Assembly: GCF_003018255.1 (NCBI RefSeq)
Contig: NZ_CP027440.1
From: Escherichia coli
GTDB taxonomy: Bacteria > Pseudomonadota > Gammaproteobacteria > Enterobacterales > Enterobacteriaceae
Length of the DNA stretch: 64,000 nucleotides
Strand: one strand, 5' to 3'
This document shows, one piece after another, positions 28,901 to 49,134 of the stretch. The notes under the pieces are model-generated. The model did not search any database. It saw only the letters and a program-made list of their open reading frames with translations, and was not told where the DNA came from. Numbering within the stretch: position 1 is the stretch's first letter; every line of letters begins with the position of its first letter. Both the position numbers and the translations under genes were made by a program.

Positions 28901-30459
28901 CGCACTTTAGCTACTCTGACTCGGCAGAAATGCTGAGCGGTAACAGCGATCTCAACGAAAAACTGCGTGAACGTCTGGAACAGGCGGAAGCGGAGCGTAC
29001 CCGCGCGCGTGAAGCGTTGCGCGGACACGCAGCGCAGTTGAGTCAGTACAACCAGGTGCTGGCTTCGCTGAAAAGTTCTTACGACACCAAAAAAGAGCTA
29101 CTCAACGATCTGCAACGTGAATTGCAGGATATCGGCGTGCGTGCTGATAGCGGGGCAGAAGAGCGGGCGCGTATTCGCCGTGACGAGTTGCACGCGCAAC
29201 TGAGCAATAACCGTTCACGCCGCAATCAACTGGAAAAAGCGCTTACCTTCTGCGAAGCGGAGATGGACAACCTGACCCGCAAACTGCGCAAGCTGGAGCG
29301 TGATTACTTTGAGATGCGCGAGCAGGTAGTGACCGCGAAAGCGGGCTGGTGTGCAGTCATGCGCATGGTGAAAGATAACGGCGTTGAACGCCGCTTACAC
29401 CGTCGTGAGCTGGCTTATCTCTCCGCTGATGATTTGCGTTCCATGTCGGATAAGGCGTTAGGTGCGCTGCGTCTGGCGGTGGCGGATAACGAACATCTGC
29501 GCGACGTGCTGCGGATGTCGGAAGATCCAAAACGTCCGGAACGTAAAATTCAGTTCTTCGTGGCGGTTTATCAGCATCTGCGTGAACGTATTCGTCAGGA
29601 TATTATTCGTACCGATGATCCGGTGGAAGCTATCGAACAGATGGAGATCGAACTTAGCCGTCTGACCGAAGAGTTAACCTCCCGTGAACAGAAACTGGCG
29701 ATCAGTTCCCGCAGCGTGGCGAACATTATTCGCAAAACCATTCAGCGCGAACAGAACCGTATCCGTATGCTCAACCAGGGTTTGCAGAACGTATCGTTCG
29801 GTCAGGTAAACAGCGTACGTCTGAATGTGAACGTGCGTGAAACGCACGCCATGCTGCTGGATGTGCTCTCTGAACAGCACGAGCAGCATCAGGATCTGTT
29901 TAACAGCAACCGTCTGACCTTCTCGGAAGCGCTGGCGAAATTGTATCAGCGTCTTAATCCGCAGATTGATATGGGGCAGCGCACGCCGCAGACCATTGGC
30001 GAAGAACTGCTGGATTACCGCAACTATCTGGAAATGGAAGTTGAGGTTAACCGTGGTTCTGATGGCTGGCTGCGCGCAGAATCTGGCGCTCTGTCGACCG
30101 GTGAGGCGATTGGTACCGGTATGTCGATTCTGGTGATGGTGGTACAAAGCTGGGAAGATGAATCTCGCCGCCTGCGCGGTAAAGATATCTCTCCTTGCCG
30201 CCTGCTGTTCCTCGATGAAGCAGCGCGACTGGATGCTCGTTCTATCGCCACGCTGTTTGAATTGTGTGAACGTTTGCAAATGCAGCTCATCATCGCAGCG
30301 CCGGAAAATATCAGTCCGGAAAAAGGCACCACCTATAAACTGGTGCGTAAAGTCTTCCAGAATACCGAACACGTTCACGTCGTCGGCCTGCGAGGATTTG
30401 CGCCGCAACTCCCTGAAACGCTTCCAGGAAGTGACGAAGCGCCTTACCAAGCGAGTTAA
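25999..30459 (+). CDS. mukB: chromosome partition protein MukB (SMC-like condensin)
   Basis: 1486-aa ORF; N-terminal Walker [10 protein letters not shown], long coiled coils, C-terminal signature region; start overlaps the mukE stop (TAATG). Confidence 0.98.
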
Positions 30460-30463
30460 AATG

Positions 30464-30490
30464 AAGGCGGCAGCAATGCCGCCTTTTCTT
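30464..30490 (+). terminator. Rho-independent terminator of smtA-mukFEB
   Basis: Hairpin aaggcggca-gcaa-tgccgcctt followed by TTCTT, 5 nt after the mukB stop. Confidence 0.7.
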
Positions 30491-30502
30491 GTGCACAGAA
30501 AA

Positions 30503-30521
30503 CCCCCAGCTAGGCTGGGGG
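30503..30521 (+). repeat. IS200 left-end subterminal hairpin
   Basis: Perfect 8-bp GC stem cccccagc-tag-gctggggg. Confidence 0.6.
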
Positions 30522-30558
30522 TTCCGGAAAGCTTTCAGCTTTGAGCCAGTTATTAAAA

Positions 30559-30627
30559 CCCCTTTTGATTTGTTAAAACACCTTGCGGTCTGGCAACTGC
30601 AAGTGTCAAACAAGAAATCAAAAGGGG
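30559..30627 (+). promoter_or_regulatory. long-range stem sequestering the tnpA ribosome-binding site
   Basis: ccccttttgatt (30559-30570) is exactly complementary to aatcaaaagggg (30616-30627), which contains the Shine-Dalgarno immediately upstream of tnpA ATG 30634; matches the known translational occlusion in IS200. Confidence 0.55.
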
Positions 30628-30633
30628 GTCCCA

Positions 30634-31092
30634 ATGGGGAACGAAAAGAGCTTAGCGCACACCCGATGGAACTGTAAATATCACATAGTTTTTGCGCCAA
30701 AATACCGAAGACAAGTGTTCTACAGAGAGAAGCGTAGAGCAATAGGCAGTATTTTGAGAAAGCTGTGTGAGTGGAAAAGCGTACGGATTCTTGAAGCTGA
30801 ATGCTGTGCAGATCATATCCATATGCTTGTGGAGATCCCGCCCAAAATGAGTGTATCCGGCTTTATGGGATATCTGAAAGGGAAAAGCAGTCTGATGCTT
30901 TACGAGCAGTTTGGTGATTTGAAATTCAAATACAGGAACAGAGAGTTCTGGTGCAGAGGGTACTACGTCGATACGGTGGGTAAGAACACGGCGAAGATAC
31001 AGGATTACATAAAGCACCAGCTTGAAGAGGATAAAATGGGAGAGCAGTTATCGATTCCCTATCCGGGCAGCCCGTTTACGGGCCGTAAGTAA
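30634..31092 (+). CDS. tnpA: IS200/IS605-family transposase TnpA (HUH Y1 single-strand transposase)
   Basis: ORF 30583..31092; start moved to ATG 30634 (MGNEKSLAHTRWNCKYHIVFAPKYRR...) giving 152 aa; HUH motif within DHIHMLVEIP; near-identical to Salmonella IS200 TnpA as recalled. Confidence 0.95.
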   Translation: MGNEKSLAHTRWNCKYHIVFAPKYRRQVFYREKRRAIGSILRKLCEWKSVRILEAECCADHIHMLVEIPPKMSVSGFMGYLKGKSSLMLYEQFGDLKFKYRNREFWCRGYYVDTVGKNTAKIQDYIKHQLEEDKMGEQLSIPYPGSPFTGRK

Positions 31093-31173
31093 CGAAGTTG
31101 GATGCAAATGTCAGATCGTGTGCGCCTGTTAGGGCGCGGCTGGTAAGAGAGCCTTATAGGCGCATTTGAAAAA

Positions 31174-31192
31174 CCTCCGGCTATGCCGGAGG
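31174..31192 (+). repeat. IS200 right-end subterminal hairpin
   Basis: Perfect stem cctccggc-tat-gccggagg followed by ATATTTATTTT. Confidence 0.6.
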
Positions 31193-31429
31193 ATATTTAT
31201 TTTCCGAAAACTCCGTTTCTGCACTAAAAAAGTGGCACATTACGGCGCGCTTTTCTTTAAACTTCTTTACATTAGGTTATGTAAAAACGTATCGGCGTTT
31301 ATATACTGAAGATAAGCCTGATGAGTAACAGGCTTGCTCGTCATACTTTCGTGAGTATTGGCGTTGTACAGGCAAGTCGTAAAATAACAGCCTGGCTATT
31401 CAGAGTATGATAAAAACAGGGGGCAAGGG

Positions 31430-33277
31430 ATGTTGCTTAATATGATGTGTGGTCGTCGGCTGTCGGCAATCAGTTTGTGCCTGGCCGTAACATTCGCTCC
31501 ACTGTTCAATGCGCAGGCCGATGAGCCTGAAGTAATCCCTGGCGACAGCCCGGTGGCTGTCAGTGAACAGGGCGAGGCACTGCCGCAGGCGCAAGCCACG
31601 GCAATAATGGCGGGGATCCAGCCATTGCCTGAAGGTGCGGCTGAAAAAGCCCGCACGCAAATCGAATCTCAATTACCCGCAGGTTATAAGCCGGTTTATC
31701 TTAACCAGCTTCAATTGTTGTATGCCGCACGCGATATGCAACCCATGTGGGAAAACCGTGATGCTGTTAAAGCCTTCCAGCAACAGCTGGCAGAGGTGGC
31801 GATTGCCGGTTTCCAGCCGCAGTTTAATAAATGGGTAGAGTTACTGACCGATCCTGGTGTTAACGGGAGGGCACGCGACGTGGTGCTCTCTGATGCGATG
31901 ATGGGCTATCTCCATTTCATTGCAAATATTCCGGTCAAAGGCACTCGCTGGCTATATAGCAGTAAACCTTATGCGCTTTCAACGCCGCCGCTTTCGGTGA
32001 TTAACCAATGGCAGCTGGCGCTGGATAAAGGTCAATTGCCTACGTTTGTTGTAGGATTGGCACCGCAGCATCCGCAATATGCGGCGATGCATGAATCGTT
32101 ACTGGCCTTACTCAGTGACACCAAACCGTGGCCCCAACTGACCGGCAAAGCAACGTTGCGCCCAGGACAGTGGAGTAACGACGTACCGGCGTTGCGCGAA
32201 ATATTGCAACGTACAGGCATGTTGGACGGGGGACCGAAAATTACGCTACCTGGCGATGACACGCCAACTGACGCGGTAGTCAGCCCATCCGCTGTTACTA
32301 TTGAAACAGCAGAAACTAAGCCGATGGACAAGCAAACTACGTCTCGTAGTAAACCTGCGCCTGTCGTTCGTGCCGCCTACGATAATGAACTGGTGGAAGC
32401 CGTTAAACGTTTTCAGGCATGGCAAGGATTGGGGGCAGATGGTGCTATTGGCCCGGCAACGCGTGACTGGTTAAACGTAACGCCCGCCCAGCGTGCTGGC
32501 GTGTTGGCACTCAACATCCAGCGATTGCGCTTGCTGCCAACAGAGCTTTCTACCGGGATCATGGTTAACATTCCAGCCTATTCGCTGGTCTACTATCAGA
32601 ACGGCAATCAGGTGCTGGATTCGCGAGTCATTGTCGGTCGCCCCGATCGCAAAACGCCGATGATGAGCAGTGCACTTAACAACGTAGTGGTAAACCCGCC
32701 GTGGAACGTACCACCAACTCTGGCACGCAAAGATATTCTGCCGAAAGTGCGCAACGATCCGGGATATCTCGAAAGCCATGGCTATACGGTGATGCGCGGC
32801 TGGAACAGCAGAGAAGCGATTGACCCATGGCAGGTTGACTGGTCTACAATCACGGCCTCGAATTTACCGTTCCGCTTCCAGCAGGCTCCAGGCCCACGGA
32901 ACTCGCTGGGGCGCTATAAATTCAATATGCCGAGTTCAGAGGCCATTTATTTGCATGACACGCCGAACCACAATCTGTTCAAGCGTGATACACGCGCATT
33001 GAGCTCAGGCTGTGTACGAGTGAATAAAGCTTCCGATCTGGCGAATATGCTGTTGCAGGATGCAGGCTGGAATGACAAACGTATTTCTGATGCGCTGAAG
33101 CAGGGCGATACGCGTTACGTCAATATTCGGCAGTCGATTCCGGTGAATCTCTACTATCTGACGGCCTTTGTTGGTGCAGATGGTCGTACCCAGTATCGTA
33201 CAGATATTTACAATTATGATCTGCCTGCGCGATCCAGCTCGCAAATTGTATCGAAAGCGGAACAATTAATCAGGTAA
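31430..33277 (+). CDS. ldtD: L,D-transpeptidase LdtD (forms 3-3 peptidoglycan cross-links)
   Basis: 615-aa ORF; signal peptide; YkuD-type catalytic region (HxxxxxxxxSxGCxR context, ...LSSGCVRV); matches YcbB/LdtD. Confidence 0.95.
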
Positions 33278-43462: not shown

Positions 43463-43609
43463 GCCGGATGCGACGCTTGACGCGTCTTATCAGGCCTACA
43501 AGTCCGTTGAAAATGCTGGTTTTGTAGGCTGGATAAGGCGTTCACGCCGCATCCGGCAGCCGTGCCCAAATGCCTGATGCGACGCTTGACGCGTCTTATC
43601 AGGCCTACA
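43463..43609. repeat. REP elements forming a BIME (three copies in alternating orientation)
   Basis: gccggatgcgacgcttgacgcgtcttatcaggcctaca (43463-43500), inverted copy 43524-43560, near-identical copy 43571-43609; a partial fourth copy follows at 43631-43648; lies between convergent pepN and ssuB. Confidence 0.85.
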
Positions 43610-47887: not shown

Positions 47888-48123
47888 ACTCTCTCCTTAT
47901 AACCAATTGTTCTTGTTTTGTTAACATTGATAACAATTCGGTCAGTCTGACAGAGGGCGTCCGCGAGTCGAAATGATTTATCTGAGGAAGAAAAGCCAAA
48001 AAAAGCATAAAAAAAGCGCAATAAGAAAACGTTTGCTATTTATTGCCGCAGGTCAATTCCCTTTTGGTCCGAACTCGCACATAATACGCCCCCGGTTTGC
48101 ACACCGGGAATCCAGGAGAGTTC
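47888..48123. promoter_or_regulatory. divergent ssuE / pyrD promoter region
   Basis: 236-bp spacer between divergently transcribed ssuE and pyrD; individual operators not resolved by eye. Confidence 0.4.
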
Positions 48124-49134
48124 ATGTACTACCCCTTCGTTCGTAAAGCCCTTTTCCAGCTCGATCCAGAGCGCGCTCATGAGTTTACTTTTCAGCAATT
48201 ACGCCGTATTACCGGAACGCCGTTTGAAGCACTGGTGCGGCAGAAAGTGCCTGCGAAACCTGTTAACTGCATGGGCCTGACGTTTAAAAATCCGCTTGGT
48301 CTGGCAGCCGGTCTTGATAAAGACGGGGAGTGCATTGACGCGTTAGGCGCGATGGGATTTGGATCGATCGAGATCGGTACCGTCACGCCACGTCCCCAGC
48401 CAGGTAATGACAAGCCGCGTCTCTTTCGTCTGGTAGATGCCGAAGGTTTGATCAACCGTATGGGCTTTAATAATCTTGGCGTTGATAACCTCGTAGAGAA
48501 CGTAAAAAAAGCCCATTATGACGGCGTTCTGGGTATTAACATCGGCAAAAATAAAGATACGCCGGTGGAGCAGGGTAAAGATGACTATCTGATTTGTATG
48601 GAAAAAATCTATGCCTATGCGGGATATATCGCCATCAATATTTCATCGCCAAATACCCCAGGATTACGCACACTGCAATATGGCGAAGCGCTGGATGATC
48701 TCTTAACCGCGATTAAAAATAAGCAAAATGATTTGCAAGCGATGCACCATAAATATGTGCCGATCGCAGTGAAGATCGCGCCGGATCTTTCTGAAGAAGA
48801 ATTGATCCAGGTTGCCGATAGTTTAGTTCGCCATAATATTGATGGCGTGATTGCAACCAATACCACGCTCGATCGTTCTCTGGTTCAGGGAATGAAAAAT
48901 TGTGATCAAACCGGTGGCTTAAGTGGTCGTCCGCTTCAGTTAAAAAGCACAGAAATTATTCGCCGCTTGTCACAGGAATTAAACGGTCGCTTACCGATCA
49001 TCGGTGTTGGCGGCATTGATTCGGTTATCGCTGCGCGTGAAAAGATTGCTGCGGGGGCCTCACTGGTGCAAATTTATTCTGGTTTTATTTTTAAAGGTCC
49101 GCCGCTGATTAAAGAAATCGTTACCCATATCTAA
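48124..49134 (+). CDS. pyrD: dihydroorotate dehydrogenase (quinone)
   Basis: ORF 48097..49134; start moved to ATG 48124 ([10 protein letters not shown]...) preceded by CAGGAGAG; 336 aa. Confidence 0.96.

Follow-up and report, generated by a model that had tools for sequence, protein, structure and literature searches.

An IS200C copy in the T-run of the mukB terminator of an Escherichia coli lineage, and the hairpin-plus-T-run sequences that precede its relatives

In the window analysed here (the whole stretch of 64,000 nucleotides from Escherichia coli contig NZ_CP027440.1), 970 bp of spacer lie between the end of mukB at 30459 and the start of ldtD at 31430, two genes that, by their annotations, are separated by 260 bp in both the K-12 derivative MFDpir and strain BH100. 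What are the additional 710 bp, how did they come to lie there, and do they matter to the genes on either side? A preliminary description of this DNA had set a spacer of 970 bp against one of about 260 bp in K-12 and ascribed the difference to an IS200-family insertion; alignment with the K-12 spacer bears this out, in that K-12 has a 260-bp empty site and not the same 0.97-kb spacer. Judged by its sequence, the extra 0.71 kb is one intact copy of IS200C, which belongs to the IS200 group of the IS200/IS605 family and occurs once within the window. IS200C, which ISfinder and NCBI PGAP use as the name of the E. coli isoform of IS200, is a known element, and it is already annotated at this site in public genomes. 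We place high confidence in the explanation as a whole, namely that IS200C lies in the T-run of the mukB terminator, is clonally inherited, targets T-runs by a peel-and-paste route, is repressed in its expression and has little effect on its neighbours. The locus comprises the following features:

30464..30485, + strand: mukB (mukFEB) terminator hairpin, AAGGCGGC-AGCAAT-GCCGCCTT, with its GC core at 30466-30483
30484..30490, + strand: remaining terminator T-run TTTTCTT, the target adjoining the left end, from the empty-site comparison
30491..31201, + strand: complete IS200C element, from the sequence common to independent copies and from full-length matches of 98-100%
30634..31092, + strand: tnpA, encoding a 152-aa Y1 HUH transposase that contains DHIHMLVEIP, from Pfam and NCBIfam matches and homology to solved structures
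31202..31429, + strand: ldtD upstream region, unaltered and outside the element, identical to K-12 and BH100

The element has full-length DNA matches of 98-100% nucleotide identity in hundreds of E. coli genomes, where they are annotated as "IS200/IS605-like element IS200C family transposase"; strain 104 carries DNA identical to the window copy at the same site, under the PGAP name IS200C and with the protein WP_000526135.1. This identical TnpA is encoded at 10 of 12 independent loci, the other two having WP_000526115.1 and WP_001531805.1. The tnpA open reading frame is listed as 169 aa from a TTG start and gives 152 aa from the ATG at 30634, and its product, correctly described beforehand as an HUH transposase of that length, matches Pfam Y1_Tnp (PF01797; 4.4e-38, positions 2-121 of 121) and NCBIfam transpos_IS200 (NF033573; 1.9e-43, 147.7 bits with a cut-off of 55). 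The HUH motif is H61-I-H63, and the RGYYVDTVG motif with the catalytic tyrosine starts at residue 108; H61-I-H63 and W-C-R-G-Y-Y-V-D-T-V-G align with dhih and w-t-r-s-y-f-v of the solved structures 2ec2 and 2f4f. Together with 2a6m (IS608) and 2xm3, these structures are matched at E = 4e-23 to 2e-16, and the solved homologues belong to Sulfolobus, IS608 and ISDra2. Neither tnpB nor iscB is present in the element: tnpA is the sole ORF with a transposase match, and the other listed ORFs are overlapping frames without matches. A repeat search returned no inverted repeat that pairs both termini, in agreement with the preliminary description, and the only pair at the right edge lies in the flank. 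A RAYT identity of TnpA was considered and rejected, NCBIfam REP_Tyr_transpos scoring 32 bits against a cut-off of 80.

The junctions can be read from the empty site, GCCGCC TTTTC TTTTT CCG (also given as TTTTCTTTTT), and the filled site of the window, which consists of GCCGCC TTTTC TT, the insert GTGCACAG...GGAGGATATTTA (starting GTGCAC) and then TTTT CCG. The gap position in a MAFFT alignment of the window with the empty site is arbitrary, and the junctions were set by eye and by pairwise alignment. Because one junction T is ambiguous, the net insert of 710 bp can be placed at 30491..31200 or equally at 30490..31199, and the sequence common to 13 independent IS200C copies, GTGCACAG...GGAGGATATTTATT, corresponds to 711 bp of the window (30491..31201). 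The element itself shows nothing that sets it apart from the annotated IS200C copies. Its left junction has one T fewer than in at least 58 sister genomes: these are otherwise 100% identical over 4 kb and have an extra T there (CTTT directly followed by GTGCAC), with an insert of 711 bp. TT is present at both junctions, and "no duplication" and a 2-bp TT duplication yield identical sequence. The segment had previously been delimited as 30491-31205, of which the start is exact, and the end, which falls at 31200/31201, had been drawn 4-5 nt too far, into the flank TTCCG.

How widespread are the element and this particular insertion? Matches covering at least 80% of IS200C occur in 2063 of 5426 complete E. 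coli genomes (38%) and matches of any length in 3096 (57%), with 35 places in one genome, a distribution that contradicts the earlier view of IS200 as uncommon in E. coli. The filled mukB-ldtD site is found in 97 of the 5426 complete genomes, so that calling the insertion site strain-specific was too strong; the 5425 genomes matched mostly have the empty 260-bp site, as do K-12 and BH100. K-12 derivatives show the empty mukB-ldtD site only and have the element in no other place, in line with the suggestion that the insertion marks a non-K-12 lineage. The best 60 of the 97 filled-site genomes are all filled and 99.9-100% identical to the window over 4 kb, at least 58 of these 60 listed genomes being 100% identical over that distance, and sister genomes among those listed have 5-13 IS200C places each. 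Many of the filled-site genomes come from chicken, turkey or "avian/APEC" sources and include O78:H4, an APEC type that we take to be usually ST117 / phylogroup G. Going by these flanks, the mukB-ldtD insertion marks a lineage rather than one strain and is clonally inherited in one E. coli lineage, and its identical junctions point to a single origin of the filled site.

Within the spacer, IS200C entered the T-run of the mukB intrinsic terminator and is oriented like mukB. The terminator hairpin folds at -11.8 kcal/mol (z = -3.9, ssDNA fold), and the left end of the element lies 7 nt past the GC stem in the window, directly after the mukFEB terminator as had been claimed, and 8 nt past it in the sister genomes. 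A ctRNA_p42d match at 30462-30494 (E = 0.43) was rejected as being just the mukB terminator.

The position of IS200C after a terminator looks like a rule, not a coincidence. Across the window site and twelve other independent E. coli IS200C sites, a GC-rich hairpin and a T-run precede the left end GTGCAC in 13 of 13 cases, TT being the last two letters of the left flank at all 13. Usually the hairpin is the terminator of an upstream gene in the same orientation (htpX, yfdV, arcA, ycfJ, deoD, sgrT, uhpT, plaP and others). The MFE of the upstream 45 nt at these sites ranges from -12.4 to -28.8 kcal/mol; in the background, -12.4 is reached by 15% of TTTT sites when all those of the window are taken and by 28% when the intergenic ones of a 50-kb E. 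coli stretch are taken, and the chance of finding hairpins at 13 of 13 sites is P about 6e-8. Plasmid copies of Salmonella IS200F and Y. pestis IS1541A likewise follow a hairpin and T-run (the Salmonella copy was drawn from a plasmid collection and the E. coli copies from an E. coli collection). Wider flanks were obtained by scanning for the left-end hairpin core in one genome per species, and are those among the matches listed, whose taxa include Y. pestis, Vibrio ruber, V. penaeicida, Brenneria, Edwardsiella, Pluralibacter and Budvicia as well as Oxalobacter, Sutterella, Mailhella, Desulfovibrio, Peptococcaceae and a Bacillota MAG. Among these listed matches, 88 of 89 distinct flanks have an MFE of <= -10 kcal/mol and 84 of 89 one of <= -12.4, the single weak-hairpin flank of the 89 being L048. 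Over all 103 sites taken together, those from the scan being among the matches listed, 84 have their insertion point 5-9 nt beyond the final G/C pair of the stem, and the tails are 91% T, their last four letters being TTTT in 64 and NNTT in 102.

Internally, the element has the following parts:

30497..30502, + strand: A-rich tract AGAAAA, proposed as the left guide from TTTCTTGTGCA / TGCACAGAAAA complementarity with the flanking T-run and by analogy with IS608
30501..30523, + strand: left-end subterminal hairpin AACCCCCAGC-TAG-GCTGGGGGTT, a perfect 10-bp stem at element nt 11-33
30501..30624, + strand: Rfam RF01405 STnc490, left-end/5'UTR RNA structure, 146.4 bits against a gathering threshold of 56, full model 1-124
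30553..30642, - strand: putative antisense sRNA art200, approximate position, by homology only
30559..30627, + strand: long 5'UTR stem-loop burying the Shine-Dalgarno, RNA fold -40.4 kcal/mol, z = -3.9
31121..31164, + strand: inner right-end inverted repeat TGCGCCTGTTAGG / CCTTATAGGCGCA, 85% complementary
31174..31192, + strand: right-end subterminal hairpin CCTCCGGC-TAT-GCCGGAGG, terminator-like on both strands in a terminator scan
31193..31201, + strand: right-end tail ATATTTATT, the 9 nt between hairpin foot and element end, unchanged in 13 of 13 E. coli copies

The subterminal hairpins reported earlier at both ends are recovered by ssDNA folding, the left one at -11.7 kcal/mol (z = -4.0) with arms that are 100% complementary and the right one, with an 8-bp stem, at -12.9 kcal/mol (z = -4.9). 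The base directly after the right-end tail varies among the 13 E. coli copies; the end of the element, TATT, resembles the T-run target, and GAAAAA lies 5' of the right-end hairpin. A match to Ysr202, a Yersinia sRNA, on the minus strand at 31169-31284 was rejected (30.5 bits against a gathering threshold of 315), the right-end hairpin being what drives it.

The left half of this anatomy has close counterparts in Salmonella IS200, in which the left-end hairpin is a bidirectional terminator at nt 12-34 that blocks incoming transcription, and in which art200, of about 90 nt, is complementary to the 5'UTR of tnpA together with its three initial codons (Ellis et al. 2015, PMC4513863). The 5'UTR stem-loop of the window occupies element nt 69-137, the corresponding Salmonella structure nt 69-138 (PMC4513863), and the STnc490 match is on the sense strand, art200, whose sequence is conserved here, being described as antisense. 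By analogy, three features would together hold IS200C expression very low: the terminator hairpin of the left end, the stem-loop in the 5'UTR, by which the RBS is hidden, and antisense art200. IS200 is notoriously inactive (PMC4513863), and the window copy may not have moved since the ancestral insertion event.

How, then, would such an element reach a terminator? By analogy with better-studied relatives, TnpA, as a Y1 HUH enzyme, would mobilise the top strand in the form of a single-stranded circle ("peel and paste"), and the circle would re-insert 3' of a short T-rich target on ssDNA, preferentially on the lagging-strand template. The T-run would provide both the cleavage and the target sequence, and the AGAAAA tract beside the left-end hairpin may read it by pairing. 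In the family paradigm, insertion always places the left end 3' of a short sequence specific to the element, and a guide tetranucleotide located 5' of the foot of the left-end hairpin reads this sequence; in IS608 the guide is AAAG and the target TTAC (PMC5027513). The A-run and the T-run are the same in all subfamilies, leaving no guide-target covariation to compare. As to the strand, GC skew is +0.09 around the insertion site and positive over most of the window. Of the 75 related loci among the matches listed that have 3 kb or more of flank, 61 carry the top strand of the element on the G-rich strand (p = 4e-8), a bias confounded by the enrichment of co-oriented genes and of terminators themselves on the G-rich strand. 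Such a top-strand bias fits the family preference for the lagging-strand template (PMC5027513).

Terminators may be preferred as landing sites because their hairpin-plus-T-run shape resembles the right end of the element: on ssDNA, a terminator (hairpin and 5-9-nt T-rich tail) would mimic the right end (hairpin and 9-nt ATATTTATT tail). We propose tentatively, as a possibility that we hold to be real though short of probable, that the IS200 group (IS200, IS200C, IS1541 and relatives in Vibrio, Desulfovibrionaceae and Bacillota) would consist of structure-directed, "terminator-homing" transposons that integrate 5-9 nt past the stem. If true, terminator homing would be a target rule unlike the plain tetra-/pentanucleotide rule of IS608 and ISDra2. 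The role of the target hairpin is not obvious, because dsDNA beside the IS608 target gave no integration stimulus and even hampered integration (PMC5027513). Tandem right-end/left-end junctions in Y. pestis (L121, L122 and L124) fit either insertion beside a right end or tandem duplication.

The same distribution would arise if IS200C inserted at any T-rich site and only the copies just past terminators escaped purifying selection, which we consider unlikely. In a compact genome, few sites are less harmful than those right after terminators, one of the 89 listed flanks has only a weak hairpin (L048), and IS200 insertions inside genes have been reported, in Salmonella hisD and Yersinia inv, which counts toward selective survival. 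Such survival predicts, however, that other neutral intergenic T-runs should be occupied, yet 13 of 13 E. coli sites and 84 of the 89 flanks listed are hairpin sites, when just 28% of intergenic TTTT sites match even the weakest of the 13 hairpins. Also at odds with it are the narrow distance from the stem (5-9 nt in 84 of 103 sites among the matches listed) and the fact that the end adjoining the T-run is always the left one. Part of the terminator association could come from the survival of harmless insertions rather than from target choice.

Two further alternatives concern this insertion itself. The element might be kept for a benefit to the host, through a stronger two-way block to transcription between mukFEB and ldtD or through IS200-derived sRNAs (art200, tnpA 5'UTR fragments): terminator-like hairpins stand at both ends of the element, the Salmonella tnpA 5'UTR yields sRNAs that affect gene expression (PMC5435999), and at least 97 genomes have retained the insertion stably. 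We find this quite improbable, given that more than 5300 genomes are without the element at the mukB-ldtD site, that IS200C copy number and location differ widely among strains, and that 100% identity over 4 kb suggests recent clonal descent, not long-term selection. We give almost no credence to an ancestral 970-bp spacer from which K-12 and most strains would have lost 0.71 kb through precise excision. The filled site occurs in just 97 of 5426 genomes, the best 60 of which are 99.9-100% identical over 4 kb, and the empty site spans flank haplotypes that are 96.9-99.4% identical to the window; the idea draws what appeal it has from the ability of IS200/IS605 elements to excise precisely and leave the target intact, so that an empty site fits "never inserted" and "excised" alike (PMC5027513).

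We return to the preferred reading, an insertion of IS200C into the mukB terminator T-run that was then clonally inherited, and to the genes on either side. A simple terminator scan calls the mukB terminator on the + strand in the K-12 site and not in the window, where its T tail is shortened. The window retains the stem and TTTTCTT (7 nt), with the left-end terminator hairpin of the element 10 nt further on, and K-12 and the window agree throughout the 228 bp upstream of ldtD, where both have the same two promoter-like sites. Little effect on the neighbours is expected, because the mukB stem and a 7-nt T-run remain, both element ends are terminator-like and the region upstream of ldtD is intact; as far as can be judged from the DNA, the insertion is probably neutral, without effect on mukB or ldtD.

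Among the closest known systems is Salmonella IS200 (IS200F), the founding member, which is of the same length class with a single tnpA and shares the left-end terminator hairpin, the RBS-hiding 5'UTR stem-loop and the STnc490/art200 region. Its TnpA is identical at 145 of 152 residues (95%), the near-identity that the preliminary description had noticed, and its DNA is 92.5% identical, but at the left end its initial 10 nt are different, with GTCTATGGAA against GTGCACAGAA. Yersinia IS1541A has a TnpA identical at 143 of 152 residues (94%), DNA that is 87.5% identical and the same hairpins at both ends; every non-tandem IS1541 copy recovered from Y. pestis NCTC5923 follows a hairpin and T-run. 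IS1541 has a much higher copy number in Yersinia (PMC4513863), and in Y. pestis shows tandem right-end/left-end junctions, which the window does not have. The mechanistic paradigm of IS200/IS605 "peel and paste" transposition is provided by IS608 of Helicobacter pylori and ISDra2, whose TnpA is a homologous Y1 HUH enzyme (2a6m, 3.9e-19; 2xm3, 1.9e-16) and which resemble the window element in having subterminal hairpins, no inverted repeats, a left end that adjoins a specific short target and a strand bias that fits the lagging-strand template. They differ from it in carrying tnpB and in their targets, TTAC and TTGAT, where the window element is without tnpB and has a T-run as its target; moreover, a GC hairpin nearly always precedes a target of the window type, and the IS608 target has no such feature. 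REP elements and their RAYT/TnpA-REP proteins combine related Y1 enzymes with extragenic hairpins and a short guide at the hairpin foot (PMC6006769), but the window element, unlike REP, is a mobile, multi-copy one with a gene of its own.

A literature search for an explicit statement that IS200/IS1541 targets terminators returned only a 2025/26 preprint on enrichment, key reviews lying outside its coverage, and one paper mentions in passing an IS1541 that lies between pheL and pheA in Yersinia (PMC3082878). The terminator-homing rule is the only part of this analysis with some potential for novelty; older reviews may state it already, and an earlier description is likely.

For the window itself, the insertion is a catalogued IS of small consequence, already annotated at the mukB-ldtD site in 97 RefSeq genomes. 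Presence or absence of the filled site cleanly marks one E. coli lineage, which is associated largely with poultry and includes O78:H4 APEC. Beyond that lineage, the mukB-ldtD site exemplifies what looks like a rule, that IS200-type elements of many phyla lie 5-9 nt after a terminator hairpin. Such a rule would explain both the harmlessness and the persistence of IS200-type elements, and it supplies a concrete target model that can be tested in the branch of the IS200/IS605 family that has been studied least.

The window was compared over positions ~1-50,000 with strain 104, an E. coli that carries an identical mukB-ldtD copy of the element; there, with the insertion sequence excepted, the genes between pflA and ycbX follow one another as is standard for the E. 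coli core. No tRNA genes were found in the window. Its Rfam matches include STnc490 (RF01405) and, away from the element, two ordinary ones:

43527-43605, naRNA4 (82 bits)
48056-48129, PyrD leader (98 bits)
30501-30624, plus strand, STnc490, on the sense (tnpA) strand of the IS200-group element IS200C and including its left-end terminator hairpin

According to PMC4513863, art200, the characterised sRNA once named STnc490, runs antisense to the tnpA 5'UTR; the Rfam model and the transcript reported there seem to lie on opposite strands.

Two small differences lie close to the left end of the element. At the junction (30489-30490) the window reads CTT directly before the terminal GTGCAC, versus CTTT in no fewer than 58 genomes whose sequence over 4 kb matches it at 100% in every other position. 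The difference amounts to one base within a T homopolymer, and either it arose by true slippage or it is an error of sequencing or assembly. Just upstream, MukB ends in ...EAPYQAS, as opposed to ...EAPSQAS in the empty-site strains K-12 and BH100, and within 30445-30450 the window has TAC (Tyr) where these strains have TCT/TCC (Ser), together with a synonymous change (CAA versus CAG). The Ser-to-Tyr change, five codons ahead of the stop, is a lineage-specific substitution.

Sequences related to IS200C also occur well beyond this site. Truncated pieces recur on E. coli plasmids: a fragment of nt 1-337 (97-98% identity) is present on numerous large plasmids of this species as well as on one from Klebsiella, and an unannotated fragment of nt 571-710 (92% identity) is present on pO157-type plasmids of O157:H7. 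In a contig scan with one genome per species, the 17-nt left-end hairpin core, CCCCAGCTAGGCTGGGG, was exactly common to IS200-like elements of very distant bacteria, the matches listed (L016-L119) including Bacillota, Peptococcaceae and Saccharibacteria MAGs, Mailhella, Desulfovibrio, Oxalobacter and Vibrio. Among these matches the core was frequently located at contig ends, and some genomes (Vibrio ruber and one Bacillota MAG) held more than ten copies. Other matches (L021, L035-L036, L077, L096 and L099-L106) form a separate group, in which the core has other surroundings (...GGGGGTATTTCTT or GGGGGATGTTTATT) and looks like the right end of a different element.

At three loci of Yersinia pestis NCTC5923 (L121, L122 and L124), a copy of IS1541, the Yersinia relative of IS200C, has the right end of another copy directly 5' of it (...CCGGAGGATATTTA-TT-GTGCCCAG...). 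These are either head-to-tail tandem copies or insertions precisely at a right end; the IS1541 right end resembles a hairpin followed by a T-rich target. The minus strand of the window at 31169-31284 bears a weak, sub-threshold similarity to the Yersinia sRNA Ysr202, anchored on the right-end hairpin of IS200C in its minus-strand reading, which suggests that Ysr202 terminates in an IS1541 right end.
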